The notes beneath the pieces were generated by a model that saw only the letters and a program-made list of their open reading frames with translations, was not told the DNA's origin and ran no database searches. 64,000 bases of DNA from Clostridia bacterium (lineage in GTDB: Bacteria; Bacillota; Clostridia; TANB77; UBA1234): positions 95,167 to 159,166 of the forward strand of contig JAFUGE010000006.1 of NCBI GenBank assembly GCA_017469545.1. The letters run 5' to 3'. Shown in pieces: positions 3,721-63,464 of the stretch. Numbering within the stretch: position 1 is the stretch's first letter; each line of letters opens with the position of its first letter. The position numbers were made by a program, and so were the translations under genes.

Positions 3721-4464
3721 ATGATGCGAAATATAAAAATAATCATTGAATATGATGGGAAGAATTTTGCTGGCTGGCAAAATCAACCTGGAAAAGTAAG
3801 CGTGCAAGGAGAAATTGAAAGAGCGCTTCATGAAGTAACTGACGAAGAAATCAATGTCATGGCTTCTGGCAGAACGGATGCGGGAGTGCATGCGCTTGGA
3901 CAAGTTGCAAATTTTCATACGAATACGAATATAGAAATTCATAAAATTCCTTATGCGATTAATTCGAAACTTCCAAAGAGCATTAGGGTAACGAGTGCGG
4001 AAGAAGTAGAAGAAAGGTTCCATGCGAGATATAATTGCAAGGGGAAGACGTATCGATATATCATTAATAATCATGAATTTCCTTCGGCATTAAATCGTTT
4101 TCGAGAGTTTCATATTGCACAAGAATTAAATGTGGAGGAAATGAAAAAGGCCTTGCAATTTTTTGAGGGAACGCACGATTTTAAAGGCTTTAAGTCTTCT
4201 GGGGGAAGCGAAAAGAAAACGACAGTTAGGACCCTAACTAAGTGCGAATTGAAGGAAGAAAATAAAATCATTACTGTGGAATTATCGGGGGATGGATTTT
4301 TATATAACATGGTTAGAATTATTGTGGGAACGATTGTGGATGTTGGACTAGGGAAAATCAAGGCGGACGATATCCCAGATATTATTGCTTCTTGTGACAG
4401 GACAAAAGCGGGAAAAACCTTGCCACCACACGGATTATATCTCGTACAAGTAAATTATCTGTAG
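3721..4464 (+). CDS. truA: tRNA pseudouridine(38-40) synthase TruA
   Basis: The N-terminal IEYDGxxFxGWQxQ and RTDAGVHA motifs are present. The TAG stop lies inside a REP-like repeat. Confidence 0.9.
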   Translation: MMRNIKIIIEYDGKNFAGWQNQPGKVSVQGEIERALHEVTDEEINVMASGRTDAGVHALGQVANFHTNTNIEIHKIPYAINSKLPKSIRVTSAEEVEERFHARYNCKGKTYRYIINNHEFPSALNRFREFHIAQELNVEEMKKALQFFEGTHDFKGFKSSGGSEKKTTVRTLTKCELKEENKIITVELSGDGFLYNMVRIIVGTIVDVGLGKIKADDIPDIIASCDRTKAGKTLPPHGLYLVQVNYL

Positions 4465-4486
4465 GGGCGGCGTAATACGCCGCCCG
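4460..4486 (+). repeat. REP-like GTAG-hairpin repeat (variant GGGCGGCG...CGCCGCCC)
   Basis: TGTAGGGG followed by an 8-bp GC stem, a loop and its complement, then CCCG. It donates the truA TAG stop. Confidence 0.8.
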
Positions 4487-4606
4487 CGCGTTCTTAATGA
4501 TATTTGTCACTTTTTTGAAAATGTTAGAACTTTTGTTTGACAAGAACACCTATTTGTGATATTATCTTTTTGAACAATCATATCTTAGAAAGGGTGTTGT
4601 TAAAAA

Positions 4607-5302
4607 ATGAAAGAAACAAAAACTACAAAAACCACAAAATCGACTAAGAAAGAGGATAATGTTGTCAATATATCAGAGGCAAAAGTGACAGATAAACAAA
4701 TGCGTGTTTTGAACTACGTCAAAGAATGTATTAGAAGAGATGGTTATGCACCATCAGTTAGAGATATTTGCAAGGCGCTAGATTTGAAGTCTACTTCTAC
4801 GGTTCACGGATACTTGGTAAGACTTCAAAAGAAAGGTTTAATTCAAAAGGCCGCATTAAAGCCTAGAACCATTACAATTACAGGCGATAATCATTCAAGC
4901 GAAGATAAGCCTTTTTATACTTCAAAAGAAATGGTAGACGTGCCAATTGTCGGAAAAGTTACTGCAGGCGAGCCAATTTTGGCTGTGGAAAATATAGAGG
5001 ATTCCTTCCCACTTCCAATTGATTTCGTTGGAAATTCGGAAACATTCATGCTTAGAGTTCGCGGGGATAGTATGATTGAAGCCGGCATTTTGAGCGGCGA
5101 CTTAGTGCTAGTAAAACAGCAAAATACCGCTGAAAATGGCGATATTGTAGTAGCACTAATCGAGGACGAAGCTACAGTAAAAACATTCTACAAAGAAAAA
5201 GGATTTATTCGTTTGCAGCCGCAAAATAGTTTCATGCAGCCAATTATTGTGCCTACTTGTACAATACTAGGAAAAGTGGCTGGCGTATTTAGAAAATTAT
5301 AG
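4607..5302 (+). CDS. lexA: LexA repressor (S24 peptidase) with a Lys/Thr-rich N-terminal extension
   Basis: HTH region, AGEP cleavage-site context and [12 protein letters not shown] plus GDIVVA motifs. A candidate Cheo-like box GAACTTTTGTTT overlaps the -35. Confidence 0.9.
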
Positions 5303-5351
5303 TATAAAATAAAATTACCTCCTAATAATATCATTATTAGGAGGTTTGTTT

Positions 5352-5534
5352 ATGAAAAAATCTTTTTTAAATAAGCTAGGGCTAAACAATGCCAATGTAA
5401 GAAGAAAAGGAAGCGGAATCATTGAGGATAGAACAGAATATGGAGAATTTATTGCAAGCTTTGATGCGTGGATGACGCCAGAAGAGCAGAAAAAACGAGC
5501 AGAACACTTGCAAAACTTAGGAAAGAAGAAATGA
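5352..5534 (+). CDS. small hypothetical protein (60 aa)
   Basis: AGGAGG lies 7 nt upstream of the ATG. That RBS is base-paired within a perfect hairpin (5318-5344). Confidence 0.35.
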   Translation: MKKSFLNKLGLNNANVRRKGSGIIEDRTEYGEFIASFDAWMTPEEQKKRAEHLQNLGKKK

Positions 5535-5536
5535 AC

Positions 5537-5620
5537 TATCCAAGGGGGACTATCCAAGGGGGACGGAGGAAAATGGATAAAACCTTATCCATTTTCCTCC
5601 GTCCCCCTTGGATAGTTAAT
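5537..5620. terminator. bidirectional terminator with a 27-bp perfect stem between convergent genes
   Basis: CCAAGGGGGACGGAGGAAAATGGATAA and its reverse complement, plus a direct repeat ACTATCCAAGGGGG x2. Confidence 0.6.
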
Positions 5621-6344
5621 CTTCTTTTACCAAGTACACATTCCACTTCTGTCTGCCAAGTTTTAATGCGTAGCTTTTATCGAATACGGCGTAATCAAAA
5701 CGGTATTTCCCTTTGACGGCGTTTCCAGTGTCCATTGCAACTACATAGCCAAGGCCTTCTACATAGAACTTGGTTCCTAATTTCCAATATTTTGTGTCTA
5801 CTGCAATAGAAACTCCTGCAATGATTGGCTTTCCGGAAGCGGTATACCCTAGATTATTGCTACATTCTTCCACGCTTGGCGTATAAGCAGTGCCTTCAAA
5901 TTCTCCAACATATTCTAATTTGCTATAGTCAACAGGAGAAGTTACTTCTTCTGCTTGTCCATAGTTTTGAGGCTTGATGCCTACGTCGGCGGCTGTTTTC
6001 AATGACTGTTGCAATTTAATGTTTTCTTGTGCAAGATAAAGATTGTTTTTTGCAATGATTTCAGCTTCTTCTAGCATTTGCTGTCTTTCTTCTTCTAATT
6101 GGTCTTTTTCCTCTTGAATCTGAGCCTTCTGCTCTTCTAACTCACTTGTTTGCTGATTTAGCACTTCATGTTTTTTGGCATACTGTGCAATCGTGTCTTG
6201 AGAATAAAGCCCAACAAGTGCTGTAACAGCAAAAAGGCTGAGGCAAGCACAAGAAATTCCTTTGATTAATTTTTTATGTTTCATTTCATTTTTTCTAAAA
6301 TTAAATATTGATTTATACTGAGGAGCAATATCCGATCTGCTCAT
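5616..6344 (-). CDS. 3D-domain (MltA-like) cell-wall protein with signal anchor and coiled coil
   Basis: C-terminal 3D domain (GTAYTP...AVDTKYWKLGTKFYVEGLGYVVAMDTG). Start was set at MSRSD, which has an AGGAGG RBS, because the longer ORF would overlap the tmRNA. Confidence 0.75.
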   Translation of the reverse strand: MSRSDIAPQYKSIFNFRKNEMKHKKLIKGISCACLSLFAVTALVGLYSQDTIAQYAKKHEVLNQQTSELEEQKAQIQEEKDQLEEERQQMLEEAEIIAKNNLYLAQENIKLQQSLKTAADVGIKPQNYGQAEEVTSPVDYSKLEYVGEFEGTAYTPSVEECSNNLGYTASGKPIIAGVSIAVDTKYWKLGTKFYVEGLGYVVAMDTGNAVKGKYRFDYAVFDKSYALKLGRQKWNVYLVKED

Positions 6345-6367
6345 TATTTTCCTCCTAATAGCAAGTT

Positions 6368-6716
6368 TGGTGGAGCTGACGAGAATTGAACTCGTGTCCG
6401 AATACCCTAAAATATCAACTTCTCCGAGTGCAGTTTGTTTTTTAAAATTTCCGCGATAAAACGCCAACAAACAGGCTTTTTATTTTGGTAACTTGATCAA
6501 ATACCCACTATCGCAAAGTTTTGATAGTTTCGTTTCCACTTTATTTGACGCCCGATGCTAGCCAAGTGGCACACTAGGTCGAACGAAGCCGCACTTAGGC
6601 AGCTAATGCGAAATTATTTTCGTTAATTATTTTTTCTCTCGTTTTTTAGATGGCCTACGAGAATCCATCACTCGCTATTGATATCCGCAGATAACCGTCG
6701 AAACCATTACAGCCCC
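6368..6716 (-). ncRNA. ssrA: tmRNA (SsrA)
   Basis: tRNA-like 3' end GGACACGAGTTCAATTCTCGTCAGCTCCACCA, a 5' GGGGCTG acceptor strand, and an internal tag reading frame ending ...NENNFALAA followed by TAA. Confidence 0.8.
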
Positions 6717-6845
6717 ATATACGGATGAACGGCTTTGCCGTTACATAGTTATTATAACAGATTATTATTTTTTTAGCAATGGAAATTATGATTGATTTCT
6801 TTTTTGTTTTATTATATGATAATTACCATAGAGGAGGAAGAACGA

Positions 6846-8126: not shown

Positions 8127-8139
8127 AACATCTTCGCAT

Positions 8140-8167
8140 GCAGCACGGTATCACCGTGCTGCATTTT
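8140..8167 (+). terminator. rho-independent terminator after the M14 peptidase gene
   Basis: GCAGCACGGT-ATC-ACCGTGCTGC followed by ATTTT. Confidence 0.6.
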
Positions 8168-8318
8168 CGGGGTGGCAGAAAAGTGAGTGCCCTGGCAGAA
8201 ATTGGAAACGTGCGCATTTTCGGCGTCGCTGAAAATGCGCATTCTGGAAGAAATTGGAAAGATGCGCGTTTTGGGGGTGGCGGAAAAGTGTGCATCGCGA
8301 TTGCCCCTGCATTTTGTG
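8168..8318. repeat. two degenerate ~50-bp tandem units with internal hairpins, upstream of the prfA promoter
   Basis: ...GGCAGAAATTGGAAACGTGCGCATTTTCGG... and ...GGAAGAAATTGGAAAGATGCGCGTTTTGGG.... The hairpin GCGCATTTTCGGCGTCGCTGAAAATGCGC is present. Confidence 0.5.
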
Positions 8319-9439: not shown

Positions 9440-9443
9440 AATC

Positions 9444-9470
9444 TGTAGGGGCAGCGTATTACGCTGCCCG
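9444..9470 (+). repeat. REP-like GTAG-hairpin repeat
   Basis: TGTAGGGGCAGCGTATTACGCTGCCCG. Confidence 0.85.
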
Positions 9471-9510
9471 TTTTGCGATTTTATCAATTGAAAAACAATA
9501 TTGAAATTTG

Positions 9511-9538
9511 CGGGCGGCGTGCTACGCCGCCCCTACGG
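9511..9538 (-). repeat. REP-like repeat, inverse orientation (GGGCGGCG variant)
   Basis: CGGGCGGCGTGCTACGCCGCCCCTACGG. Confidence 0.85.
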
Positions 9539-9884: not shown

Positions 9885-9911
9885 TGTAGGGGTCGGCGTC
9901 TCGACGACCCG
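9885..9911 (+). repeat. REP-like repeat, compensatory stem variant
   Basis: TGTAGGGGTCGGCGTCTCGACGACCCG. Confidence 0.8.
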
Positions 9912-10982: not shown

Positions 10983-11028
10983 TTGATTGCAAATTAATTT
11001 ACAAATTTGATAAAGAGGAGGAAATAAA

Positions 11029-13113
11029 GTGGCAACCGGAAAGAGAGAGTTTTCTTTAGAGAAGACTAGAAATATCGGAATAATGGCTCACATTGATGCT
11101 GGTAAAACAACAACAACAGAGCGTATATTATTCTATACAGGTAAGACACATAAAATCGGTGAAGTTCACGATGGTGCTGCTACTATGGACTGGATGGTTC
11201 AAGAGCAAGAAAGAGGTATTACAATTACTTCTGCTGCTACAACTTGTTTCTGGAAAGGCCATAGAATCAATATCATTGATACACCGGGCCACGTTGACTT
11301 TACAGTTGAGGTTGAGAGATCTTTAAGAGTACTTGACGGTAGCGTTGCAGTATTCACAGCAAAAGATGGTGTACAACCACAATCTGAGACGGTTTGGAGA
11401 CAAGCTAACAAGTACAACGTTCCAAGACTTGCGTATGTTAATAAAATGGATACAACAGGTGCAGATTTCTACAATGTTGTAAACAAAATTAGAGATAGAT
11501 TACACGCAAATCCAGTTCCAATACAATTACCAATTGGAGCGGAAGATACTTTCGTAGGTATCGTTGACCTTATGAAAATGAGAGCTTTCATTCATAAGGA
11601 CGACCTTGGAAAAGAAATTGAGGAAACAGATATTCCAGCTGACTTGAAAGAGAAAGCTGAAGAGTTCAGAGCGCAAATGATTGAAGCTGCTGCCGAACAA
11701 GACGATGCATTGATGGAGAAATATTTAGAGGGCGGCGAATTGACGATTGAAGAAATCAAGAAAGGCCTAAGAATAGGAACACTTGCTTGTAAGCTTACAG
11801 TTGTAACTTGCGGTTCTTCATATAAGAATAAAGGCGTTCAAGAATTACTTGACGCAATTCTTGATTACATGCCTGCTCCAATCGATGTACCAGCAATTAA
11901 GGGCGTTAACCCAGAAACAGGCGAAGAGGAAGAGAGACCTTCTTCAGACGAAGAGCCTTTCGCAGCGTTAGCATTTAAGATTGCGACAGACCCATTCGTT
12001 GGAAAGCTTTGCTTCTTCAGAGTTTATTCAGGAACTCTTGAGACAGGTACAACAGTACTTAATACAAACAAAGATAAGAGAGAAAGATTTGGTAGAATTC
12101 TATTAATGCACTCTAACCACAGAGAAGATATCGAGAAAGTATATTCTGGAGATATCGCTGCGGCTGTAGGACTAAAGGATGTTACTACTGGCGAAACACT
12201 TTGTGATCCAGCACATCCAATCGTTCTTGAGTCAATGGAATTCCCAGAACCAGTTATTTCTGTTGCAATCGAGCCTAAGACAAAGGCTGACCAAGAAAAG
12301 ATGGGTATTGCACTTTCAAAGCTTGCTGAGGAAGACCCAACTTTCAAGACGTATACAGACCAAGAAACTGGCCAAACAATTATTTCTGGTATGGGTGAGC
12401 TACACCTTGACATTATCGTTGACCGTTTGAAGAGAGAATTCAAGGTTGAATGTAATGTTGGTGCACCACAAGTTGCATACAAAGAAACAATTAGAAATAA
12501 AGTAAAAGCACAAGGTAAATTCATTAGACAGTCTGGTGGTAAAGGACAATACGGTGACGTATGGCTAGAGCTTGAGCCACTTGAACCAGGAACTGGAATT
12601 CAGTTCGAGTCTAAAATCGTTGGTGGTGCCGTTCCTAAGGAATACATCAAACCAACAGAAGATGGATTTAGAGAGGCTTGCAATACTGGTATCCTTGCTG
12701 GTTACCCAGTAGTAGATGTCAAAGCAACATTAGTAGATGGTTCATATCACGAAGTTGACTCTTCAGAAATGGCCTTCAAGATTGCTGCATCTATGGCATT
12801 CAAAGAGTGCTGTAAGCTAGGAAAATCAGTTCTTTTAGAGCCGATTATGAAAGTTGAAATTGTTGTTCCAGAAGAATATATGGGCGACGTTATCGGCGAT
12901 GTCAACTCAAGAAGAGGTAGGCTAGAAGGAATGGAAGCACAATCTGGTAACCAAGTAATCCATGCATTCATTCCACTTTCAGAGATGTTTGGTTATGCAA
13001 CAGACTTAAGATCTAGAACACAAGGTAGAGGAACTTATTCTATGGAACCAAGCCATAACGAAGAAGTGCCTAAGTCAATTCTAGAGGCAATTACAGCGCA
13101 AAGAGCAAAATAA
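11029..13113 (+). CDS. fusA: elongation factor G
   Basis: AHIDAGKTT and DTPGHVDF G-domain motifs, 694 aa. Confidence 0.95.
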
Positions 13114-13134
13114 AAATGGATATTATGAATAATC

Positions 13135-13161
13135 CGTAGGGGTTGCGTACGACGCAACCCG
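13135..13161 (+). repeat. REP-like repeat, variant GGGTTGCG...CGCAACCC
   Basis: CGTAGGGGTTGCGTACGACGCAACCCG between fusA and tuf. Confidence 0.8.
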
Positions 13162-13272
13162 CAAGAAAAATTAAAAACATCTTGAAAATTTGAGATATAA
13201 TTAGTAAAATGTTTTTAACAAAAATGATTTCAAAATTTAAAAATATAAAAAAATAAAAGGAGGAAATTTATA

Positions 13273-14475
13273 ATGGCTAAAGAGACATTCGTAAGAAACA
13301 AACCACACGTTAACATTGGTACAATCGGACACGTTGACCATGGCAAAACTACTTTAACAGCTGCTATCACAAAAGTATTATCTTTAAAGGGAGAAGCTGA
13401 ATTCAAAGCTTATGACCAAATCGACGGTGCTCCAGAAGAAAGAGCAAGAGGTATTACAATCAATACTGCTCACGTTGAGTATGAAACAGAAAACAGACAC
13501 TATGCACACGTTGACTGCCCAGGACACGCTGACTATGTTAAAAACATGATCACTGGTGCTGCACAAATGGATGGTGCTATCCTAGTTTTATCTCCAGCTG
13601 ATGGCCCAATGCCACAAACAAGAGATCACATTATACTAGCTCGTCAGGTAGGCGTTCCTTATATCGTAGTATTCCTAAACAAATGCGATATGGTTGACGA
13701 CCCAGAAATATTAGACTTAGTTGAAATGGAAGTTAGAGAATTATTATCTAAATATGACTTCCCAGGCGACGACACACCAATCATTAAGGGCAGCGCTCTT
13801 AAAGTTTTGGAAAGCACATCAACAGATCCAAATGCTCCAGAATATGCTTGCATTAAAGAGTTAATGGATACAATTGATAGCTATATCCCAACTCCAGAAA
13901 GACCAGTTGACCAACCATTCCTAATGCCAGTTGAAGACGTATTCACAATTACTGGTAGAGGAACAGTTGCTACAGGTAGAGTTGAAAGAGGAACAGTTAA
14001 ACTTCAAGACGAAGTTGAAATCGTTGGTATCGCTAAAGAGACAAAGAAGACAGTTGTTACAGGTGTTGAGATGTTCAGAAAACTTCTTGACCAAGCTGAG
14101 GCTGGTGATAACATCGGTGTTCTTTTAAGAGGTATTCAAAGAAACGAAATTGAAAGAGGCCAAGTATTAGCTAAACCAGGTACAATTCACCCACACACAA
14201 AGTTCAAGGGTCAAGTATACGTTTTAACTAAGGAAGAGGGCGGAAGACATACACCATTCTTCAACAACTACAGACCACAATTCTATTTCAGAACAACTGA
14301 CGTTACAGGTGTTGTTCAATTACCTGCTGGTACAGAAATGGTTATGCCAGGTGATAACATCACAATGGATATCGAAATTATCTCTCCTATCGCTATTGAG
14401 CAAGGATTGAAGTTCGCTATTCGTGAAGGTGGTAGAACAGTTGGCGCTGGTATCGTTACAGAAATCGAAGCGTAA
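13273..14475 (+). CDS. tuf: elongation factor Tu
   Basis: [14 protein letters not shown] and NKCD motifs. Confidence 0.95.
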
Positions 14476-15971: not shown

Positions 15972-15998
15972 TGTAGGGGCAGCGTATCACGCTGCCCG
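15972..15998 (+). repeat. REP-like GTAG-hairpin repeat
   Basis: TGTAGGGGCAGCGTATCACGCTGCCCG, followed by the ACGAACTGCGTTA module. Confidence 0.85.
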
Positions 15999-16034
15999 TT
16001 TCGTACGAACTGCGTTATATAAGGAGGTGAATAT

Positions 16035-16682: not shown

Positions 16683-16686
16683 GATT

Positions 16687-16713
16687 TGTAGGGGCAGCGT
16701 ATCACGCTGCCCG
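16687..16713 (+). repeat. REP-like GTAG-hairpin repeat
   Basis: TGTAGGGGCAGCGTATCACGCTGCCCG, followed by AAAACGAATTGCGTTA. Confidence 0.85.
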
Positions 16714-16760
16714 CTAGCAAAAACGAATTGCGTTAGAGCCACAAAAAACGAATGCCAGAA

Positions 16761-16795
16761 AAAATACCAACAAATAGTTGGTATTTTTTTGTTGT
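16761..16795 (+). terminator. terminator downstream of rnc
   Basis: AAATACCAAC-AAAT-AGTTGGTATTTTTTT. Confidence 0.6.
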
Positions 16796-17918: not shown

Positions 17919-17929
17919 GGACGGATAAA

Positions 17930-18767
17930 ATGAAAAAAGATATTTTTAAATTTGTGTTAGCAATTCTTCGGAGGTGCACTGGTAGGCCTTGCTACTGGAT
18001 GGATACTGCTTCCTCTAAAGCTTTCTACGGGAGGATTTAGCGGAATTTCTACGCTAGTATACTATGTGTTTCACATCCCGGCTGGCTGGGTAACACTTGC
18101 GTTAAACATTCCGTTATTTTTAGTTTCGCTAAAAATGCTAGGAGTTAAATATAGTTTTAAAACATTGGCAAGTATGGTTTCTTTATCGTTTATGCTAGAA
18201 GTGGCACAGAGATGGCAGCCGCTGACGAATGATATGATTCTCGCTTCGATTTTTGGAGGGGTGTTGGTTGGCATTGGCCTTGCGCTTGCCCTAAGAGGAG
18301 AAAGCACAACAGGCGGAACAGATTTAATTGCAAAGCTTATTCAATCGAAAAAACAATATTTGAATATGGGCGATATTTTGTTATTAATTGATGGACTCAT
18401 TATTTTGGCTTCTTCTTTTACGTTTGAAAGTATCGAAGTTGCTTTGTATTCAGGCATTGCAGTATTCGTTATGACGAAGATAATTGATTTGATTTTGGAT
18501 GGCGGAAATTACGCAAAAGCAATGTTTATCATTTCAGATAAATCGGAAGAAATTTCAAGGTATATTACCAATGAAATCGGCTTGGGAGCTACGATTTTAG
18601 ACGGTAAGGGCGCCTACTCGCACAAAGATAAAAATGTACTTTTGTGTGTGGCAAACAAAAGAGAAATTCCAAAATTGAAAGACAAGATAAAAGAAATAGA
18701 CGATAGATGCTTTATCATAATTACTACGGTGACGGAGGCGATTGGCGAGGGCTGGAATGAAAAATAA
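17930..18767 (+). pseudogene. YitT-family membrane protein (DUF161 + DUF2179), broken by a +1 frameshift near 17969
   Basis: MKKDIFKFVLAIL is in frame 1. The remainder (FFGGALVGLATGW...) continues in frame 2 into ORF 18066..18767. Removing C17969 restores ...LAILGGALVGL. Confidence 0.6.
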
Positions 18768-18780: not shown

Positions 18781-18807
18781 CGTAGGGGCAGCGTATGACG
18801 CTGCCCG
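18781..18807 (+). repeat. REP-like repeat
   Basis: CGTAGGGGCAGCGTATGACGCTGCCCG. Confidence 0.8.
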
Positions 18808-18824: not shown

Positions 18825-19592
18825 ATGGAACTAACTGAAATTGCAAGAGAAGTGAGAAAAGATATTTTGCTCCAAGTGTACAGTGCACAGTCGGGGCACC
18901 CAGGAGGAGCACTTTCGTGTGCAGATTTACTTACGAGCATTTATTTTGATTTGATTAACGAGGGAGATAAAGTGGTTCTATCGAAAGGGCACGCATCTCC
19001 AGCGTTATATGCTGTGCTTGCGGAGAAAGGATTTTTTCCAAAAGAAGAGTTAACGACATTTCGAAAAATCAATAGTCATTTGCAGGGGCATCCATCGCTT
19101 TTAAAAACAAATGGGGTTGATGCTTCCAGTGGTTCTTTGGGGCAGGGGCTATCGATTGCAAATGGAATGGCGCTTGCGTTTAAAATGGACAACAAGCCAA
19201 ATACAGTATATGCTATTTTAGGTGATGGCGAATTGCAAGAGGGCCAAATTTGGGAAGCGGCTATGACAGCAAATCAGTATCGTTTAAATAATTTGATTGT
19301 GTTTGTGGATTATAACAAGTTGCAGATTGATGGCTCGAATGACGAAGTAATGCAGGTTGCGCCTGTCAAAGAAAAATTTGAAGCATTTGGTTTTTTTGCA
19401 CAAGAAATTGATGGACACAATTTTGAAGCAATTAGAGAAGCGGTTATGAAAGCGAAAGCACAAGAAAAGCCAAGTGTCATTGTCGCCAACACCATAAAAG
19501 GAAAAGGTGTGTTGTTTATGGAAAATCAAGTTTCATGGCACGGTAAGGCACCAAACAAAGAACAATATGAAAAGGCGGTGAAAGAACTGTAG
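18825..19592 (+). CDS. transketolase, N-terminal (TPP-binding) subunit
   Basis: SGHPGGALS and GDGELQEG motifs. Its TAG stop is supplied by the REP-like repeat. Confidence 0.85.
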   Translation: MELTEIAREVRKDILLQVYSAQSGHPGGALSCADLLTSIYFDLINEGDKVVLSKGHASPALYAVLAEKGFFPKEELTTFRKINSHLQGHPSLLKTNGVDASSGSLGQGLSIANGMALAFKMDNKPNTVYAILGDGELQEGQIWEAAMTANQYRLNNLIVFVDYNKLQIDGSNDEVMQVAPVKEKFEAFGFFAQEIDGHNFEAIREAVMKAKAQEKPSVIVANTIKGKGVLFMENQVSWHGKAPNKEQYEKAVKEL

Positions 19593-19642
19593 GGGTGGCG
19601 TATTACGCCACCCGCGGGCAGCGTGCTACGCTGCCCCTACAG
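19588..19642. repeat. inverted pair of REP-like repeats forming a 55-nt palindrome
   Basis: CTGTAGGGGTGGCGTATTACGCCACCCG + CGGGCAGCGTGCTACGCTGCCCCTACAG. Confidence 0.85.
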
Positions 19643-19748
19643 TAATTTTGGGGGGCTCAAATGGAATTTATTAAGATGGCAAAAATGGGTTTCGCATTTT
19701 TGCAAGAGCCCCCAAAAACGAATTGCGTTACATTAAGGAGGTAATGAA

Positions 19749-20662: not shown

Positions 20663-20689
20663 TGTAGGGGCAGCGCACTACGCTGCCCG
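20663..20689 (+). repeat. REP-like repeat
   Basis: TGTAGGGGCAGCGCACTACGCTGCCCG. Confidence 0.85.
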
Positions 20690-20837: not shown

Positions 20838-20864
20838 CGTAGGGGTCGGCGTCTCGACGACCCG
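20838..20864 (+). repeat. REP-like repeat, GTCGGCG variant
   Basis: CGTAGGGGTCGGCGTCTCGACGACCCG, just upstream of ftsE. Confidence 0.8.
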
Positions 20865-20945
20865 AAAATGAAAATCAGATATGAATGCAGAAACCCCTAC
20901 AACATACCAAAGATAAGTGTATTAGTGAGTTCAGGGAGGTTAATA

Positions 20946-23678: not shown

Positions 23679-23705
23679 TGTAGGGGCAGCGTATCACGCT
23701 GCCCG
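23679..23705 (+). repeat. REP-like repeat
   Basis: TGTAGGGGCAGCGTATCACGCTGCCCG. Confidence 0.85.
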
Positions 23706-24363: not shown

Positions 24364-24390
24364 CGGGCGGCGTATTACGCCGCCCCTACG
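24364..24390 (-). repeat. REP-like repeat, inverse orientation
   Basis: CGGGCGGCGTATTACGCCGCCCCTACG. Confidence 0.8.
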
Positions 24391-25177: not shown

Positions 25178-25204
25178 GGTAGGGGCAGCGTATCACGCTG
25201 CCCG
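25178..25204 (+). repeat. REP-like repeat
   Basis: GGTAGGGGCAGCGTATCACGCTGCCCG. Confidence 0.85.
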
Positions 25205-25312
25205 TGCAATATGTCGGGATATTATTGCAGGCCGCACCCTACAAATTCACATAAAACCATTGAAAAATCCTGTATTTATAGTATAATATTATGGAAAAAT
25301 GATTAGGGGTGA

Positions 25313-28007: not shown

Positions 28008-28058
28008 GGTAGGGGCAGCGTATTACGCTGCCCGTCACGCTGCCCGTCGCGCTGCCCG
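28008..28058 (+). repeat. REP-like repeat with two extra tandem half-arms
   Basis: GGTAGGGGCAGCGTATTACGCTGCCCG-TCACGCTGCCCG-TCGCGCTGCCCG. Confidence 0.8.
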
Positions 28059-33265: not shown

Positions 33266-33292
33266 TGTAGGGGCAGCGTAACACGCTGCCCG
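33266..33292 (+). repeat. REP-like repeat
   Basis: TGTAGGGGCAGCGTAACACGCTGCCCG. Confidence 0.85.
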
Positions 33293-36201: not shown

Positions 36202-36228
36202 TGTAGGGGCAGCGTTATACGCTGCCCG
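36202..36228 (+). repeat. REP-like repeat
   Basis: TGTAGGGGCAGCGTTATACGCTGCCCG. Confidence 0.85.
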
Positions 36229-41062: not shown

Positions 41063-41089
41063 TGTAGGGGCAGCGTAGCACGCTGCCCG
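41063..41089 (+). repeat. REP-like repeat
   Basis: TGTAGGGGCAGCGTAGCACGCTGCCCG. Confidence 0.85.
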
Positions 41090-42863: not shown

Positions 42864-44653
42864 TACTAATAACAATTCACCTCAAAGACCTATGGGAAGA
42901 GGAAGAGGTAGAGTAGCTTTTGAGAGTGCAAAGGATACAAAGGGAACTTTGAAGAGACTACTTAAGTACATTGAAAAAGATAAGAAAAAATTAGTTGTTG
43001 TATTTTTACTGGTTATCGTAAGTTCACTTACCAGCATTCTATCTACCTCAATTTTAAAACCTATCGTGGACGATTATATCGCTCCGAAGGATTGGCCAGG
43101 ACTAATTAGAATGATTGGACTAATGATTTTACTTGCTGTGATAGGCGCACTTGCAACTTTAGTGCAAAATAGAATTATGCTTAAGATATCACAAACTACG
43201 GTAAGAGATTTGAGAAGAGATGTATTCAATCAGCTAGTAAAACTACCAATTCGATATTATGATACGCATTCTAGCGGCGAGCTTATGAGTAGAATTACGA
43301 ATGACCTTCAAAACGTGACGGATATTTTATCTAGTAGTATTGTCAGTATCTTTTCCAATGTGCTTACATTTGTAGGAGTAACCGTGGCAATGCTAATGAT
43401 AAGCCCTACACTGACACTTTTAAATATTATAGCAATTCCAATTATTATATTGATCACTTCTAAAATTGCAAAAATCAATAGAAAACAATTTATGGCACAA
43501 CAAGCGGAACTACGGAAGAATCAATGGATTTATCGAAGAAAGAATTTCAGGCCAATATGTTGTCAAAGCTTTTGAAATGGAAAACAAGAGTATGGAGGAA
43601 TTTTCTGTTATCAATAATGATTACAGAAAAGTAGGAATCAAAGCAGAAGCTTTTGCGGGACTTGTCATGCCACTTGCAAGAAACTTAAATGGATTAACTT
43701 ATGCAGCTACCATAGTTGTTGCTGGAATATTAGGCGTAAGAGGAACATTATCAATTGGAGATTTTACGACATTGACGAGATTTGCAAGACAGTTTGGACA
43801 ACCGATTAATGAAATCGCAAATCAGTTTAGTTCGATTCAATTAGGATTAGCAAGTGCAGAGAGATGTTTTGAAATCATTGACGAGAAAATAGAGATTGCA
43901 GACGATATCAGTAAAGTGGAATTGGAAAATGTTAAGGGCGAAGTAAAAATCGAGGGCGTTTATTTTGGTTATGACGAGGGTAAAACAGTCCTTAAAAATA
44001 TCAATCTGGACGTGAAGCCTGGTGAAGTAATCGCGATTGTGGGCCCTACTGGTGCAGGAAAGACGACGATTGTGAACTTACTTACTCGTTTTTACGATGT
44101 TAACAAAGGCAGAATTTTGATAGACGGAATCGATATTAGAGATATGTCAAGAAAATCACTTCGTGAAGCAATTGGCATGGTGTTGCAAGACACGGTTTTA
44201 TTTGCAGAAACAGTGAGAAATAATATCCTATTTGGAAAGCTTGACGCCACAGAAAAAGAATTAGAGACAGCATCAGAAATGGCAAGAGCAGACGAGTTTA
44301 TTAATCACTTACGTGATGGCTATGATACACTTCTTAATGAAGACGGAGGCAACTTAAGTGTTGGTCAAAGACAGCTTTTAAACATTGCAAGAGTGTTTAT
44401 TAATCAACCTAAGATTTTAATCTTAGACGAAGCAACAAGTAATGTTGACACAAGAACAGAAGTAAAAATTCAAGAAGCAATGTTGGAGCTAATGAAAGGA
44501 AGAACAAGTTTTGTCATTGCCCATCGACTTTCCACCATTAGAAATGCTGATAAAATTATTGTCATTGACAATGGCCAAATCATAGAAGCGGGCACGCATA
44601 AGGAACTAATTGAAAAACAAGGAAGATATTATCAGCTATATACTGGTGTGTAA
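42856..44653 (+). pseudogene. ABC exporter, fused permease/ATPase, second subunit, interrupted by a +1 frameshift near 43513
   Basis: ORFs 42856..43575 and 43466..44653 are contiguous in sequence (...FMAQQAEL | GRINGFIEERISGQ...). Removing C43513 restores the frame. NBD motifs GPTGAGKTT and LSVGQRQL follow. Confidence 0.65.
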
Positions 44654-44662: not shown

Positions 44663-44689
44663 TGTAGGGGCGGCGTATTACGCCGCCCA
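44663..44689 (+). repeat. REP-like repeat (3' CCCAC variant)
   Basis: TGTAGGGGCGGCGTATTACGCCGCCCAC. Confidence 0.8.
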
Positions 44690-45608: not shown

Positions 45609-45872
45609 ATTTACTAGTCCTTTTATATCTTTTTGTCATTTGCATGGTTAATGATAAACTTCCTCCTTTCTTTTTATATTTCTTGTTTGGAAAAATTCTT
45701 GTAGCGGATGCTACAAAATAGAATTTGTTTAGATAGGCGAGAAGCCTATCTAAAGATTAAGTACATGTTACATTGGAATTTTTTATTTGTCAATACAAAT
45801 TTTGGAAAAATTTGTTGCTTTTTCGTTTTTAATTTGCTAGAATTTAATTGTAGGAAATTCACGGGCGTAATC

Positions 45873-45899
45873 GGGCGGCGTGATACGCCGCCCCTACAA
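45873..45899 (-). repeat. REP-like repeat, inverse orientation (first of a cluster at 45848-46327)
   Basis: CGGGCGGCGTGATACGCCGCCCCTACAA, preceded by a truncated forward copy TGTAGGAAATTCACGGGCG. Confidence 0.8.
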
Positions 45900-45932
45900 A
45901 TGTACGTCAATGTGGGCGCAAACCCGTATGCC

Positions 45933-45960
45933 TGTAAGGGCAGCGTAATACGTTGCCCAC
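45933..45960 (+). repeat. REP-like repeat, degenerate (GTAAGGG head)
   Basis: TGTAAGGGCAGCGTAATACGTTGCCCAC. Confidence 0.65.
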
Positions 45961-46049
45961 AAACAGGGTTGATACACGTTAATTGCAACAAAGATATAAA
46001 AATTGGAGGAAACAAATGAGAAATAAAAACCATGTAACCGTTGGGGCTG

Positions 46050-46067
46050 TACACACACACACACACA
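46050..46067. repeat. (AC)9 dinucleotide microsatellite
   Basis: ACACACACACACACACAC, ~300 bp upstream of the DGR target gene. Confidence 0.9.
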
Positions 46068-46100
46068 CACACGAACGTTTCGTTAAACATAGAATTTGCT

Positions 46101-46128
46101 CGTAAGGGTGGCGAATTACGCCGCCCAC
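46101..46128 (+). repeat. REP-like repeat, degenerate
   Basis: CGTAAGGGTGGCGAATTACGCCGCCCAC. Confidence 0.65.
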
Positions 46129-46246
46129 AGAACGCGTGCGAGAATAATAGAATAAGAGACGGATAAAATAGAGGCTGGCTTTGTGTCTTTTGGCACGAGG
46201 CTGGTCTTTTTGCGTTCTCGTGGTGGGCATGGCGGGCGGCGCAATC

Positions 46247-46327
46247 GGGCGGCGTAATACGCCGCCCCTACAAAATATGCATCAATGAGGGATACATGCC
46301 TGTAGGGGCAGCGTATCACGCTGCCCG
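46247..46327. repeat. inverse + forward REP-like pair
   Basis: CGGGCGGCGTAATACGCCGCCCCTACAA ... CTGTAGGGGCAGCGTATCACGCTGCCCG. Confidence 0.85.
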
Positions 46328-46362
46328 AAAAGAGAAATTAAAACGGAAGGAATGATTTAAAA

Positions 46363-47404: not shown

Positions 47405-47432
47405 CGGGCAGCGTACTACGCTGCCCCTACGG
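47405..47432 (-). repeat. REP-like repeat, inverse
   Basis: CGGGCAGCGTACTACGCTGCCCCTACGG. Confidence 0.85.
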
Positions 47433-48575: not shown

Positions 48576-49541
48576 TTAATGGTGCCTTAGTATTAAGGTG
48601 CCATTTTTACATAGGGCTTTGTAAAATACCAATGTTGAGCAAAGGCCATAGAGCGAAACGTTACCACATTGATATCTATGATATTTTAACTTTGTTTTTT
48701 TCTTTATCCTTTGATGCTTAGCATAAATGCCGGCAGTATTTCTTCCTAAAAAGATAAAGTTATTTTTATGATTATAAATTCTCGTTTTCGAATTTAAAGT
48801 GAGTTTTTCTTTTGCTAGAAATTTTTTGATTTCTTCCAGACAGTGTTTTAAATAGTCTTTTGATGGGTGAAATAGTAAAAAATCGTCTTGATATCTCACA
48901 TAGTATTTTACTTTTAGTTGTTCTTTGATAAAGTGATCAAGATCATTTAAATAAAATAAAGCTAGCATTTGACTTGTCATAGTACCGATATGGAGGCCTT
49001 CAGCATTACTGTCGATAATATCAAATACGATTTTTAATGCATCTTTATCTTTGATTCTGCGTGAAATTTTTTGCTTTAAAATATCATGATTAATACTGGC
49101 AAAGAATTTGGTAATATCGCATTTTAAAATATAAAAATTTTTGTATTTTATTTTACATTTTCTTCTATACATATTTGCAAGAGCAATTCCTTTGTTTGTT
49201 CCCATTCTCTTTCTAGAGGCGACGTTTGCGTCTGACAAACACGGAAGTAGGGAGGGATATAGAATATATTTTGTTACTAGGTGATTCACGATTTTATCTT
49301 CTATGCCTTGACTATAAATTTCTCTTGTTTTGGTGTCATGAATAATAAATCTATTATATTTTCCTACTTGATAATTTCTTTCGGATAATGTTTTGTAAGT
49401 CCTTGCGATGTATATAGATTGATAGTCACGAAGCAATTCTTTTTTACGCTTGCTCATTATATTCTGCGAAATCTTTTGATAGGCGTATTTGATATTTTGA
49501 ATATTGCACATGTTTTCATACAAATTATTTTTTCTTTTCAT
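48576..49541 (-). CDS. DGR-type reverse transcriptase
   Basis: RT motifs closely parallel the Bordetella phage Brt: NLYEN..AYQK, KCDITKFFASINH, the DGR-specific motif-4 IGTMTSQ (IGxxxSQ), YVRYQDDFLLF (YxDD), and NFIFLGRN. Start at MKRKNN has RBS GGAGAA. Confidence 0.85.
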   Translation of the reverse strand: MKRKNNLYENMCNIQNIKYAYQKISQNIMSKRKKELLRDYQSIYIARTYKTLSERNYQVGKYNRFIIHDTKTREIYSQGIEDKIVNHLVTKYILYPSLLPCLSDANVASRKRMGTNKGIALANMYRRKCKIKYKNFYILKCDITKFFASINHDILKQKISRRIKDKDALKIVFDIIDSNAEGLHIGTMTSQMLALFYLNDLDHFIKEQLKVKYYVRYQDDFLLFHPSKDYLKHCLEEIKKFLAKEKLTLNSKTRIYNHKNNFIFLGRNTAGIYAKHQRIKKKTKLKYHRYQCGNVSLYGLCSTLVFYKALCKNGTLILRHH

Positions 49542-49564
49542 AAATTTCTCCAATGTGCAGAAAT

Positions 49565-49597
49565 AAAAATGACTTCTCATTTTGAGAAGTCATTTTT
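49565..49597. terminator. bidirectional hairpin between the AKP gene and the RT
   Basis: AAAAATGACTTCTC-AAAAT-GAGAAGTCATTTTT, a perfect 14-bp stem with A/T tails on both sides. Confidence 0.6.
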
Positions 49598-49606
49598 ATT
49601 TCAAAA

Positions 49607-49951
49607 CTATTTTTTTGCTACGGCTTTTTTAGCAACAGCTTTTTTAGCTGGAGCCTTCTTAGCGGCTGGTTTAGCAGCTACTTTTTTAGCTGGAGCTTTC
49701 TTAGCAGCTGGTTTAGCAGCTACCTTTTTAGCTGGAGCTTTCTTAGCAGCTGGTTTAGCAGCTACCTTTTTAGCTGGAGCAGCTTTCTTAGCAGCTGGTT
49801 TAGCAGCTACTTTTTTAGCTGGAGCAGCTTTCTTAGCAGCTGGTTTAGCAGCTGTCTTTTTAGCTGGAGCAGCTTTCTTAGCAGCTGGTTTAGCAGCTAC
49901 CTTTTTAGCTGGAGCAGCTTTTTTAGCTGCAGTTTTCTTTGCTACTGGCAT
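49607..49951 (-). CDS. Ala/Lys/Pro-repeat histone-H1-like basic protein (tandem 36-bp repeats)
   Basis: MPVAKKTAAKKAAPAKKVAAKPAAKK... RBS AGAAGGGGGGG lies upstream. The plus-strand ORF 49419..49976 (AFLAG repeats) is its mirror image. Confidence 0.6.
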   Translation of the reverse strand: MPVAKKTAAKKAAPAKKVAAKPAAKKAAPAKKTAAKPAAKKAAPAKKVAAKPAAKKAAPAKKVAAKPAAKKAPAKKVAAKPAAKKAPAKKVAAKPAAKKAPAKKAVAKKAVAKK

Positions 49952-61851: not shown

Positions 61852-62355
61852 GTGTGGAATGATTTAATTAAACAGAAGATTATCGACGAATTGAATGAGC
61901 AATTTGATATTATTAATCCAATTGCGCCTACTGAGAATCATTCTTATGCGGACTCCATATTTTCTCCTGCAACAGCTAGTATGTTTAAACCAATTAGCAC
62001 AGATGTTTTGAATACGCCTAATTATTTTGAAACTACTATCAATAAGACTAGAACAATAAAGGAAATTCCGGTTCATACGATTGCTTTTTCGGATTCGTTT
62101 GACACCAATACGGTTTCTAATATAAGTTTAGCGTATGCACCTTCTCCTATTAATGAGGAAAATGTATATGATATGGATCAAATAATCAATAGCGCAAATG
62201 CAATTACATTTTCTCTTACGCCAGAGCAAAGAGGGGTAGCAATTGCAAAGAAGGCTAGCTGGAAGGACGTGTTATTTCACGATGCTAGTTTGATAGGAAA
62301 TACTGACTTTGGTGTGGCAGTGAAGAAGTTCTGTAGTATGCAAATTAAAATTTAA
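61852..62355 (+). CDS. hypothetical protein (GTG start), paralog of the next gene
   Basis: Promoter TTGCAT-18-TAGAAT lies upstream. C-terminus ...DFGVAVKKFCSMQIKI resembles ...DLGGAIKKFCGIQVKF of 62382..62669. Confidence 0.4.
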   Translation: MWNDLIKQKIIDELNEQFDIINPIAPTENHSYADSIFSPATASMFKPISTDVLNTPNYFETTINKTRTIKEIPVHTIAFSDSFDTNTVSNISLAYAPSPINEENVYDMDQIINSANAITFSLTPEQRGVAIAKKASWKDVLFHDASLIGNTDFGVAVKKFCSMQIKI

Positions 62356-62381
62356 AAATATATATTTGGGAGGGGAAACAA

Positions 62382-62669
62382 ATGACAAATACTGTTGAAA
62401 CATCTAATGAATATGAAACATTAGAAGCAAGGGGAGTGGCAGTAAAGAAAAAAACGACGGCGAAAGATATCTTCTTTGGAGATATTGATTGGAAGGCTTG
62501 CGGAAAGACATTGACTAGAGAAGTAAGCTTTGAGGGCTTTAAGAGAGTAATGACAAGTGACGTTGATTTCGGCGCAATTAAAACAGCTTTACTTAGCCCT
62601 GTTCCTGATGTAAGCATAGATTTGGGTGGCGCAATTAAAAAATTCTGCGGCATTCAAGTAAAATTTTAA
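62382..62669 (+). CDS. hypothetical small protein, paralog of the previous gene (possibly spore-associated)
   Basis: RBS GGGAGGGG. Shares the C-terminal ...KKFCxxQxK motif with the previous gene. Confidence 0.4.
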   Translation: MTNTVETSNEYETLEARGVAVKKKTTAKDIFFGDIDWKACGKTLTREVSFEGFKRVMTSDVDFGAIKTALLSPVPDVSIDLGGAIKKFCGIQVKF

Positions 62670-62677
62670 AAACGAAA

Positions 62678-62777
62678 TGTAGGGGCAGCGTATCACGCTG
62701 CCCGATTTGTTTGTCAAAAATAGAAAACATGTGAAAAATTTTGATTTTACGGGCAGCGTGATACGCTGCCCCTACGG
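62678..62777. repeat. forward + inverse REP-like pair
   Basis: TGTAGGGGCAGCGTATCACGCTGCCCG ... CGGGCAGCGTGATACGCTGCCCCTACGG. Confidence 0.85.
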
Positions 62778-62864
62778 TTTTTTACGAAGAAATATCTCTT
62801 TTCACTTGACAAACAGCAAAAATGGGTGTAAACTATTTTAGGTTTACAGATAGGGAGCGTTTGA

Positions 62865-62891
62865 TGTAGGGGACGCATATCATGCGACCCG
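62865..62891 (+). repeat. REP-like repeat inside the ylxM 5' UTR (GGGGACGCA variant)
   Basis: TGTAGGGGACGCATATCATGCGACCCG, downstream of the promoter TTGACA-17-TAAACT. Confidence 0.8.
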
Positions 62892-62912
62892 TGCAAAGAG
62901 AGGATTGTTTTT

Positions 62913-63242
62913 ATGGAAAAAAGCGTTCATGTAAGTATGTTGCTTGAGATTTATGGAAAATTGCTTACAGATAAGCAAAGAGACATCATTGATTTGTACT
63001 ATAATGATAACTTATCTCTCAGTGAAATTGCCGAAGAGCTTGGCATCACAAGACAAGGCGTTCACAAGAATTTAATTGACGCTGAAAACAAACTGTTTGA
63101 TTATGAAGAAAAACTAATGGTTTTGAAGCGAAAACTGGAAGAGCAAGAAGCATTAGAAGAAATCATAAAAAAAATAAAGGACAAAAACATAAAGACGGAA
63201 CTACAAGTTTTCGAAGAAAACTTTTTTCCGGGGCTTAATTGA
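62913..63242 (+). CDS. ylxM: UPF0122/YlxM-family putative DNA-binding protein (sigma-70 region-4-like HTH)
   Basis: LTDKQRDIIDLYYNDNLSLSEIAEELGITRQGV. Precedes ffh as in many Firmicutes. Confidence 0.75.
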   Translation: MEKSVHVSMLLEIYGKLLTDKQRDIIDLYYNDNLSLSEIAEELGITRQGVHKNLIDAENKLFDYEEKLMVLKRKLEEQEALEEIIKKIKDKNIKTELQVFEENFFPGLN

Positions 63243-63284
63243 ATTTTATAATATAGTGCAAATGCCTAAGCATTTGCACCAGAG

Positions 63285-63412
63285 CCCCGGAAAACGAACT
63301 GTGTTACACTTATTTGGGGCGCGGCAAGGCCCCCGGAAAACGAACTGTGTTACACTTATTTGGGGCGTTGCAAGGCCCCCGGAAAACGAACTACGTTACA
63401 CTTATTTGGGGG
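63285..63412 (+). repeat. tandem array, 2.8 copies of a ~46-bp unit CCCCGGAAAACGAACTGTGTTACACTTATTTGGGGCGCGGCAAGGC
   Basis: Direct, contiguous repeats with no spacers. The unit contains the AAAACGAACTGYGTTACA module also seen at 16008-16027, 16720-16738 and 19712-19729. Confidence 0.85.
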
Positions 63413-63436
63413 GCGAACGCACACGACGAAACAATA

Positions 63437-63464
63437 CGGGCGGCGTGGTACGCCGCCCCTACGG
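63437..63464 (-). repeat. REP-like repeat, inverse
   Basis: CGGGCGGCGTGGTACGCCGCCCCTACGG. Confidence 0.85.

Follow-up and report, generated by a model that had tools for sequence, protein, structure and literature searches.

Densely spaced GTAG-headed hairpins with the features of REP elements in a low-GC Clostridia genome from the ruminant gut

The 64,000-nt window analysed here (contig JAFUGE010000006.1, positions 95,167 to 159,166, GenBank assembly GCA_017469545.1) derives from a Clostridia bacterium and contains, among others, the genes prfB, fusA, tuf, acpP, rnc, ftsE, clpC, and ffh. It has a GC content of 38%, a GC skew that is strongly positive along its whole length, and approximately 90% of its gene bases on the plus strand. 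The spacers between these genes are populated by a short hairpin repeat headed by the tetranucleotide GTAG, which very probably represents a family of repetitive extragenic palindromic (REP) elements of the GTAG-tagged superfamily residing in a low-GC ruminant-gut Clostridia genome. A preliminary description made from the letters of the window had noted a dense family of about 40 such hairpins, and the family was recovered far above chance. In total, 38 distinct copies lie between positions 4461 and 63462, for which a structure-aware catalogue and a covariance model of the repeat, run with filters off, were concordant. Allowing up to two mismatches, the 12-mer GTAGGGGCAGCG has 39 matches in the window versus 1.59 expected, a number that was reached in none of 100 shuffles. 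As noted earlier, the repeats occur in both orientations, with 28 copies on the plus and 10 copies on the minus strand. Their density is one per 1.68 kb, and six further copies were found in 16.8 kb of sequence flanking the window. The E. coli genome contains roughly one REP per 8 kb, compared to one per 1.7 kb for the family described here.

The repeat unit is approximately 25-26 nt long and consists of YGTAG, followed by GGGC(A/G)GCGT-ANN-ACGC(T/C)GCCC and a terminal G. It is written here as GTAG-GGGCAGCGTATCACGCTGCCC and GTAG-GGGCAGCGTATCACGCTGCCCG, with the head and the start of the stem as GTAGGGGC(A/G)GCG. The hairpin as such had been recognized before, but instead of an 8-bp stem with a 5-nt loop it is better described as a 9-bp stem, closed by a T-A pair, with a 3-nt loop. 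In all copies the tag is present on only one side of an otherwise perfect palindrome; it reads GTAG in 36 of the 38 copies and GTAA in the other two. Outside the unit the sequences are unrelated from positions -7 and +2. As RNA, the unit is predicted to fold with -17.9 to -19.4 kcal/mol (z-scores of -3.2 to -4.9), and its GC content is about 80%, versus 38% for the genome. Only transfer-messenger RNA (tmRNA) and signal recognition particle (SRP) RNA reached the gathering threshold among the Rfam families searched for in the window, and the repeat matched none of these families. Due to the fact that identical copies are present in near-identical strains, the repeats are not artefacts; the same copies occur in independent assemblies of at least three ruminant-gut samples, by which an assembly artefact is ruled out.

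All 38 copies are situated in non-coding DNA, which amounts to 7.2 kb or 11.3% of the window and of which the repeats make up approximately 14%. Of the 28 plus-strand copies, 20 have their first base at -4 to +22 nt relative to the stop codon of the plus-strand gene before them, and three genes, with their ends at 4464, 19592, and 58107, use the TAG of a GTAG head as their stop codon. The remaining copies are partly located 12-45 nt upstream of the next start codon, just before the ribosome-binding site, which agrees with the earlier observation of copies both at the 3' ends of cistrons and in 5' untranslated regions (UTRs). Repeats were also found in divergent promoter regions (45.6-46.4 kb and 55476). 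In case of tktN, the called start at 18795 lies inside a repeat loop, while alignment with relatives places the true start at 18825. A clustered regularly interspaced short palindromic repeat (CRISPR) array was rejected, since the copies occur in both orientations and with irregular spacing (a few nt to approximately 5 kb) and genes lie between them.

Inverted pairs do exist, but they are less frequent than the preliminary description, with its 55-nt palindromes, had suggested. Five complete pairs with the heads pointing outward span 52-97 nt; only one of them forms a tight palindrome (19589-19640, 52 nt), and the others enclose unrelated spacers of approximately 25-47 nt. Two pairs have their heads pointing inward (45873/45934 and 46247/46302), and 24 of the 38 copies are solitary. 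The unpaired copies are strongly biased in orientation, with 21 on the plus and 3 on the minus strand (binomial p = 3e-4). The plus strand carries the G-rich leading-strand sequence, so that in most copies GTAG lies on the template of lagging-strand synthesis. Wherever the signs of gene direction and GC skew are clear, the two coincide, both in the window and in the JAEEGL metagenome contigs; three contigs have a skew near zero.

The main family, comprising 29 copies, is almost invariant in sequence. GTAG is intact in 28 of these copies, the 16 non-polymorphic stem positions carry a single substitution in 464 sites, and the fifth stem pair is A-T in 20 and G-C in 9 copies with no exceptions. 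The first base of the loop is A in 28 of the 29 copies, and at the other two loop bases 26 of 58 sites deviate from the majority. Across 37 aligned copies of the window, 98.2% of the cells are paired and both sides are altered in 29 cells, values as high as these being seen in none of 500 shuffles, so that the stem covariation reported before is upheld. The 29 both-sided changes fall in four stem pairs, and frequent covariation is limited to one of them, the A-T/G-C pair. Four minor stem subfamilies retain a conserved G.A or A.A mismatch. The co-varying stem variants that had been listed earlier were all found, but not all of them are compensated: the subfamily GGGTCGGCG/CGACGACCC keeps a conserved G.A mismatch, and two copies of the type ...CGCA/TGCG... 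a G.A or A.A mismatch. Covariation is real, yet it is observed between few discrete subfamilies and represents few independent compensatory events.

The preliminary description had concluded from this covariation that selection acts on structure rather than on sequence, a conclusion that was not supported in this form. Since the stem shows one substitution per 464 sites, the head is nearly always intact, and only one pair covaries frequently, sequence is constrained at least as strongly as structure. A near-constant sequence is more readily reconciled with recognition by a protein or with a recent amplification than with selection on shape only. Concerted changes of both arms could also come from hairpin-templated arm-to-arm correction, a process by which the unpaired GTAG is not maintainable. 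As expected for inactive, decayed copies, the two GTAA-headed copies also have stem mismatches.

Table 1. Copies and remnants of the GTAG-headed repeat in the window.
Feature	Position	Strand	Context
G-variant, stem GGGCGGCGT/ACGCCGCCC	4461..4485	+	TAG is stop of pseudouridine synthase gene ending 4464
Main A-variant	9445..9469	+	5 nt past prfB-like stop; first arm of heads-outward pair
G-variant	9512..9536	-	Second arm of pair 9445-9536
Minor subfamily GGGTCGGCG/CGACGACCC, G.A mismatch	9886..9910	+	L7Ae/S12 spacer; missing in four relatives, inverted in L119
Variant GGGTTGCGT/ACGCAACCC	13136..13160	+	fusA/tuf spacer
Repeat	15973..15997	+	acpP/rnc spacer; intrinsic terminator there in relatives
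Repeat	16688..16712	+	5 nt past rnc stop, upstream of conserved rnc terminator 16758-16790
Repeat	18782..18806	+	Between yitT and tktN (transketolase N-terminal-half gene); loop ATG miscalled as tktN start
Variant GGGTGGCGT/ACGCCACCC	19589..19613	+	TAG is tktN stop; first half of 52-nt palindrome
A-variant	19616..19640	-	Second half of 52-nt palindrome
Loop CACTA	20664..20688	+	3 nt past stop of tktC (transketolase C-terminal-half gene)
Minor subfamily GGGTCGGCG	20839..20863	+	Upstream of ftsE
Head-only remnant GTAGGGGTTTCT	20889..20900	-	Faces copy 20839
Repeat	23680..23704	+	Followed by GTTTTTG; sole terminator-like copy in 8-28 kb scan
G-variant	24365..24389	-	Unpaired, minus orientation
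Repeat	25179..25203	+	2 nt past wecG-like stop
Head-only remnant GTAGGGTGCGGC	25231..25242	-	Faces copy 25179
Repeat (28009-28033) with 3' arm ACGCTGCCCGTC tandemly repeated 2.8x	28009..28058	+	
Repeat	33267..33291	+	PASTA kinase gene/rsgA spacer; 12 nt before next start codon
Loop TAT	36203..36227	+	After SLH-domain protein gene
Repeat	41064..41088	+	3 nt past MarR gene stop
G-variant	44664..44688	+	Between convergent genes
G-variant	45873..45897	-	Divergent spacer; followed by partial duplicate of 3' arm
Decayed, GTAA head, one stem mismatch	45934..45958	+	
Decayed, GTAA head, T.G mismatch	46102..46126	+	
G-variant, 3' arm duplicated (46233-46258)	46247..46271	-	
Repeat	46302..46326	+	36 nt upstream of gene starting 46363
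Repeat	47406..47430	-	Unpaired, minus orientation
G-variant	53365..53389	+	9 nt past ybaB stop; first arm of pair
Repeat	53423..53447	-	Second arm of pair 53365-53447
Repeat	55476..55500	+	Divergent spacer, 22 nt upstream of gene starting 55523
Repeat	56984..57008	+	5' region of gene 57037-58107
Variant GTAGGGTGCGGCGT (one extra T)	58104..58129	+	TAG is stop of gene ending 58107; first arm of pair
Repeat	58156..58180	-	Second arm of pair 58104-58180
Minor subfamily GGGTCGGCC/GGACGACCC, last stem pair compensated	58284..58308	+	Upstream of ctsR
Variant GGGGCGCA/TGCGACCC, G.A mismatch	59279..59303	+	UVR-domain gene/clpC spacer
Repeat	62679..62703	+	9 nt past stop of gene 62382-62669; first arm of pair
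Repeat	62751..62775	-	Second arm of pair 62679-62775
Variant GGGACGCAT/ATGCGACCC, A.A mismatch	62866..62890	+	22 nt upstream of ylxM-like gene
G-variant	63438..63462	-	Upstream of ffh, beside 46-nt tandem repeat

In addition to the copies themselves and the two head-only remnants, both of which lie on the minus strand (Table 1), duplications of the 3' arm directly after the hairpin were observed, namely 2.8 tandem units of ACGCTGCCCGTC at 28025-28058, two units of CGGGCGGCGCAAT at 46233-46258, and a further case at 45860-45872. Such a duplicated arm could offer alternative pairing partners to the 5' arm; slippage and aberrant processing are both possible origins. A second motif, AACGAAYTGYGTTA, occurs six times versus 0.85 times expected (16004-16017, 16722-16735, 19717-19730, and 63285-63415), downstream of REP copies and directly before the ribosome-binding site of the next gene. 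Three of its six occurrences are located inside a 46-nt tandem repeat of 2.8 units, each of which contains a GGGGC...GCCCC hairpin. The motif could constitute a small repeat family of its own or belong to a composite REP cluster resembling the bacterial interspersed mosaic elements (BIMEs) of E. coli.

Comparison of copy positions with those in relatives, which the preliminary description had named as a check on mobility, revealed that positions are not shared, which favours mobility. The loci L107, L108, and L121 of related species are syntenic with the window, gene order being conserved from prfB through the M23 peptidase gene; RNase III is 74% and 68% identical in L107 and L108, respectively, and the elongation factor EF-G of L121 is at least 90% identical. 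No copy of the repeat was found in the approximately 63 kb of these three loci, compared to 17 copies in the window over the same 20-kb stretch. The copy in the acpP/rnc spacer is also missing from contigs with 86-88% RNase III identity (L109 and L110). On two short contigs, L118 and L119, the encoded S12 protein does not differ from that of the window (88% nucleotide identity of S12), and still the L7Ae/S12 spacer is empty in L118 and contains the same minor-subfamily copy in opposite orientation in L119. Thus the occupancy of orthologous sites differs between related genomes.

The genes tktN and tktC overlap in the relatives, whereas a 156-nt insert with a REP dimer at its start lies between them in the window; the new stop codon comes from this dimer. 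Intrinsic terminators follow prfB, acpP, and the M23 peptidase gene in the relatives, at places where the window has a REP; after rnc, the REP is situated between the stop codon and a conserved terminator. These observations show that copy positions are specific to the host lineage. Other assemblies of near-identical strains differ from the window by 4-12 substitutions in 14.7 kb, the lone apparent indel being a run of N.

Contig L116, which corresponds to window positions 11000-13900, matches the window exactly up to approximately 11.0 kb and then diverges by about 20% across fusA and tuf, with no REP between these two genes. This contig represents either a recombinant strain or an assembly that is chimeric across a conserved gene. 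Furthermore, a miniature element of approximately 150 nt with inverted ends GAATTCGCAGT...ACTGCGAATT occurs in relatives (L109 60-185, L110 495-640, and L119 880-1000) and fills the acpP/rnc and S12/S7 spacers, where the window has REPs or nothing.

Outside the close relatives, 14 short contigs matched in a metagenome scan, and the exact element including its loop type is present at lower density on 13 other metagenome contigs of low GC content (31-37%). The element was not found in viral contigs. A scan of species-representative genomes revealed this head and stem combined with different loops (CTTGA, CTTGT, CTCGC, and TTCAC) at least in Opitutaceae, Lacunisphaera, Oleiharenicola, Chloroflexi, Ignavibacteria, Bacteroidota, and metagenome-assembled genomes (MAGs) of rumen Clostridia; among the matches listed, these same-stem repeats often occur several times per 8 kb and as inverted pairs. 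They share with the window family the tag, the 8-bp stem GTAG GGGC[G/A]GCG ... CGC[C/T]GCCC with its covarying G/A position, and the frequent inverted pairs, but differ in their loops, which are TATCA or TATTA in the window, and in their hosts, most of which have a GC content of 55-70%.

Some of the low-GC contigs that carry the element also contain another family of GTAG-tagged repeats, whose stems read GGCGCAC and which likewise occurs in L118. In related low-GC genomes this second family has 7-bp stems (GGCGCAC or GGCGGTC) and was observed at L118 2690-2745 and in L093, L094, and L106; in L118 a heads-outward dimer of it occupies the S7/fusA spacer. More than one REP family is therefore present in this clade.

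GTAG-tagged REPs comprise the REPs and BIMEs of E. coli, the REPs of Pseudomonas, the SMAGs of Stenotrophomonas, and the GTAG repeats of Opitutus terrae (Di Nocera, De Gregorio and Rocco 2013, PMC3733652). The REP architecture that had been proposed for the window family is confirmed by comparison with this superfamily: the unpaired 5' GTAG at the foot of a GC-rich stem (6-13 bp) with a short loop, the palindrome of 20-40 bp, the complementary subfamilies, the inverted dimers in heads-outward and heads-inward arrangement, the extragenic position approximately 20 nt or less from the end of the upstream open reading frame (ORF) at variable distance to the next ORF, and the frequent donation of a TAG stop by GTAG are common to both (PMC3733652). 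Differences are given by the host, here a low-GC Clostridia MAG, by the loop (T)ANN(A), which is particular to the window family, and by the REP-associated tyrosine transposase (RAYT), which was not seen in 81 kb. In a survey of GTAG repeats, these were detected only in Proteobacteria, Cyanobacteria, Chloroflexi, and the Planctomycetes-Verrucomicrobia-Chlamydiae (PVC) superphylum, and not in Firmicutes (PMC3733652). The window family is not a new kind of element; it matches every testable feature of GTAG REPs and stands out by its host and its density. A miniature element derived from IS200/IS605, i.e., a palindrome-associated transposable element (PATE), was rejected, since the unit is a single hairpin of 25-26 nt that lacks paired subterminal hairpins and has unrelated flanks.

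The E. coli RAYT binds single-stranded GTAG together with the hairpin and cuts at CT (PMC3479197). The window repeats would present the same substrate geometry as that of E. coli TnpA-REP (PDB 4ER8; PMC3479197), with a 5' GTAG next to a hairpin on single-stranded DNA. The E. coli hairpin, however, requires a bulge or mismatch for binding, whereas the main family here has a perfect 9-bp stem, and only about 8 of the 38 copies have the CT cleavage dinucleotide immediately 5' of GTAG. Similar to the REPINs, the inverted REP doublets of the REPIN-RAYT systems of Pseudomonas and Enterobacteria (Bertels and Rainey; PMC5581495), the window repeats are short, palindromic, non-autonomous, and tied to a lineage, and REPINs are thought to be copied by a single-copy, domesticated transposase of the Y1 type.

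As stated in the preliminary description, no RAYT gene is present in the window. No RAYT emerged when all six frames, both of the window and of approximately 90 loci, were searched for the motif HuH...Y..NP, or when 7,671 ORFs were searched by phmmer (--max) with E. coli TnpA-REP, whose query sequence exactly matches PDB 4ER8, and no RAYT or Y1 HuH gene is among the Pfam assignments of the window and its flanks. In a protein-database search, the E. coli RayT query matched only in Enterobacteriaceae. A representative-library search yielded 8,637 relatives, which come without taxon information; of the ten whose composition most resembles that of low-GC organisms, the few named ones belong to marine Gammaproteobacteria (Celerinatantimonas; two clusters consist of Tara Oceans metagenome sequences) and most are nameless. 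RAYT sequences of Clostridia were not found in the paper supplements. REPtrons, in which a cognate RAYT gene is flanked by copies of the family, have been reported for most GTAG-bearing species and are missing from some (PMC3733652). A gene of family PF12784 (44700-45608, minus strand), encoding a 'transposase' of the PD-(D/E)XK nuclease family, adjoins the spacer richest in REPs (45609-46362). Within its 754 nt, this spacer contains five REPs, including the only two decayed GTAA-headed copies, and an (AC)11 microsatellite (46051-46072).

We consider it likely that the best explanation as a whole combines GTAG REPs with mobilization by a RAYT in four steps, proposed in analogy to E. coli TnpA-REP, and mobilization by such an enzyme encoded elsewhere in the genome is, taken by itself, reasonably probable. 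The GTAG strand would fold into the hairpin when single-stranded, mainly as lagging-strand template at the replication fork, the strand on which IS200/IS605-type enzymes act (PMC6006769). A RAYT-type Y1 HuH tyrosine transposase, presumably the product of a single gene elsewhere, would bind the GTAG and the hairpin and would cut and rejoin single-stranded DNA. Copies would thereby spread, and survivors would be retained only in the narrow non-coding gaps just past stop codons. Due to the fact that nearly all copies lie inside transcription units, they would finally become part of the transcripts and form stable hairpins in intercistronic regions and 3' UTRs, where some may protect the upstream mRNA or attenuate read-through.

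Several points weigh against this explanation. Neither a RAYT nor any Y1 HuH gene was found in 81 kb (the window with flanks of 9.1 kb on its upstream and 7.7 kb on its downstream side) or in approximately 0.9 Mb of loci around related repeats. No insertion polymorphism was observed among near-identical strains, and hence no sign of ongoing movement. Unlike REPINs, which move as one unit of two inverted repeats, the majority of copies here (24 of 38) are solitary and the spacers of the pairs are unrelated, so that the doublet arrangement of Pseudomonas does not apply. The orientation bias is not assignable to replication as opposed to transcription, because gene direction is confounded with replication direction, with 90% of the gene bases on the same strand. 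Furthermore, high-copy REPs are tied to RAYT groups 2 and 3 of Proteobacteria, and Clostridia were reported with group 1 only, which has low-copy repeats (PMC5581495).

Alternatively, the hairpins may be kept mainly as host RNA elements which stabilize 3' ends or attenuate read-through between cistrons and thereby set relative expression within operons. This is possible, although we regard it only tentatively; it overlaps with the RAYT explanation rather than excluding it, and the route of the initial spread is irrelevant to it. The position of nearly all copies within transcription units and directly past stop codons, the high stability of the RNA hairpins, the invariant stem next to a drifting loop, and the replacement of the relatives' intrinsic terminator after prfB, acpP, and the M23 peptidase gene are in good agreement with an RNA role, which has been argued for many GTAG REPs (PMC3733652). 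A palindrome folds equally in both directions, however, so that the 21:3 orientation of the unpaired copies is not explained by such a role, and neither is the unpaired GTAG, the most conserved part of the element. The same operons are moreover found without REPs in related species, and copies also occur in divergent promoter regions.

Less probable is a relic, i.e., copies that were spread by a RAYT, perhaps after horizontal transfer from a GC-richer donor, and are maintained after its loss by hairpin-templated correction or host selection. We consider this unlikely, even though several observations are compatible with it: the missing RAYT in 81 kb of the genome, the lack of polymorphism among strains, the contrast between the element, with about 80% GC, and its host genome, with 38% GC, the occurrence of this head and stem in distant phyla, and the perfectly concerted A-T/G-C switch, which is the expected product of arm-to-arm templating; REP-bearing species without REPtrons are also on record (PMC3733652). 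Against a relic, 36 of the 38 heads are intact although the unpaired GTAG is not correctable from the other arm, decay is restricted to two copies, and the absence of a RAYT refers to only approximately 3-4% of a typical genome. Even less expected is a lineage with no RAYT at all, in which REPs from GC-richer bacteria were spread or maintained otherwise, by a different nuclease or by hairpin-templated copying, and reshaped the operons of one species-level lineage. If this were true, REPs would fill approximately one third of the spacers, replace stop codons and terminators, and separate the translationally coupled tktN and tktC without such an enzyme.

The remaining two explanations are both very improbable. 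Ordinary Rho-independent terminators sharing their sequence by chance would account for a GC-rich hairpin past the stop codon in each case, and the copy at 23680, followed by GTTTTTG, passes a terminator-like scan, while that at 9445 is followed by GTTTTGCGATTTT; yet a GC-rich hairpin with an immediate T run was found for only 1 of 16 copies in 8-28 kb, the genuine terminators of the window have AT-rich stems and long T runs (one of them, at 16758-16790, downstream of a REP), many copies are located 12-40 nt upstream of the next cistron of an operon, and an identical 25-nt sequence with a GTAG tag is not expected among terminators. Likewise, movement by a different enzyme, either an IS200/IS605 TnpA acting in trans or the PF12784 nuclease, could be invoked since no transposase-like gene other than that of PF12784 is present in the window, since this gene adjoins the spacer in which 754 nt contain five REPs, and since its stop codon is followed by a REP at a distance of 11 nt; this is, however, one adjacency among approximately 30 occupied spacers. 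We know of no link between the PD-(D/E)XK nuclease family of PF12784 and GTAG hairpins, and GTAG with a hairpin is the specific substrate of RAYTs (PMC3479197).

Apart from the repeats, several other features were observed in the window. A 52-nt tandem repeat of 2.6 units (8155-8294, 77% matches) is located between the M14 peptidase gene and prfB, where the sequence of the relatives is unrelated. A single locus (48576-49541, minus strand) encodes a reverse transcriptase of retron size (321 aa, PF00078 RVT_1); just upstream of it, a perfect hairpin with a 20-bp stem (49560-49602) and an ORF of 45-nt tandem repeats (6.6 units, 49641-49927) are situated, the latter with a 42-nt deletion in L114. 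Another perfect hairpin, with a 32-bp stem, a 4-nt loop, and 47% GC (5549-5616), adjoins the gene of a 3D-domain protein. The Rfam matches are tmRNA (6368-6716, minus strand) and small SRP RNA (51480-51575, plus strand). An ORF at 5616-6470 overlaps the tmRNA gene, and in the calls of other assemblies the 3D-domain gene ends at approximately 6344. An ABC-transporter gene is split into the overlapping ORFs 42856-43575 and 43466-44653, and the 5' end of yitT (17919-18135) is out of frame compared to its relatives; either frameshifts or assembly errors are presumed in both cases.

For annotation, the repeats call for caution, as at least three stop codons derive from a repeat and at least one called start is located inside a repeat; in metagenome assembly REPs are likely breakpoints. 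The filled operons of the window and the empty operons of its relatives constitute a natural comparison for the effect of REP hairpins on mRNA in an organism with a decay system of the Gram-positive type. REPs are textbook repeats of Proteobacteria, with high-copy populations linked in published surveys to RAYT groups of Gammaproteobacteria, and their dense population in a gut Clostridia genome of 38% GC widens the known host range.

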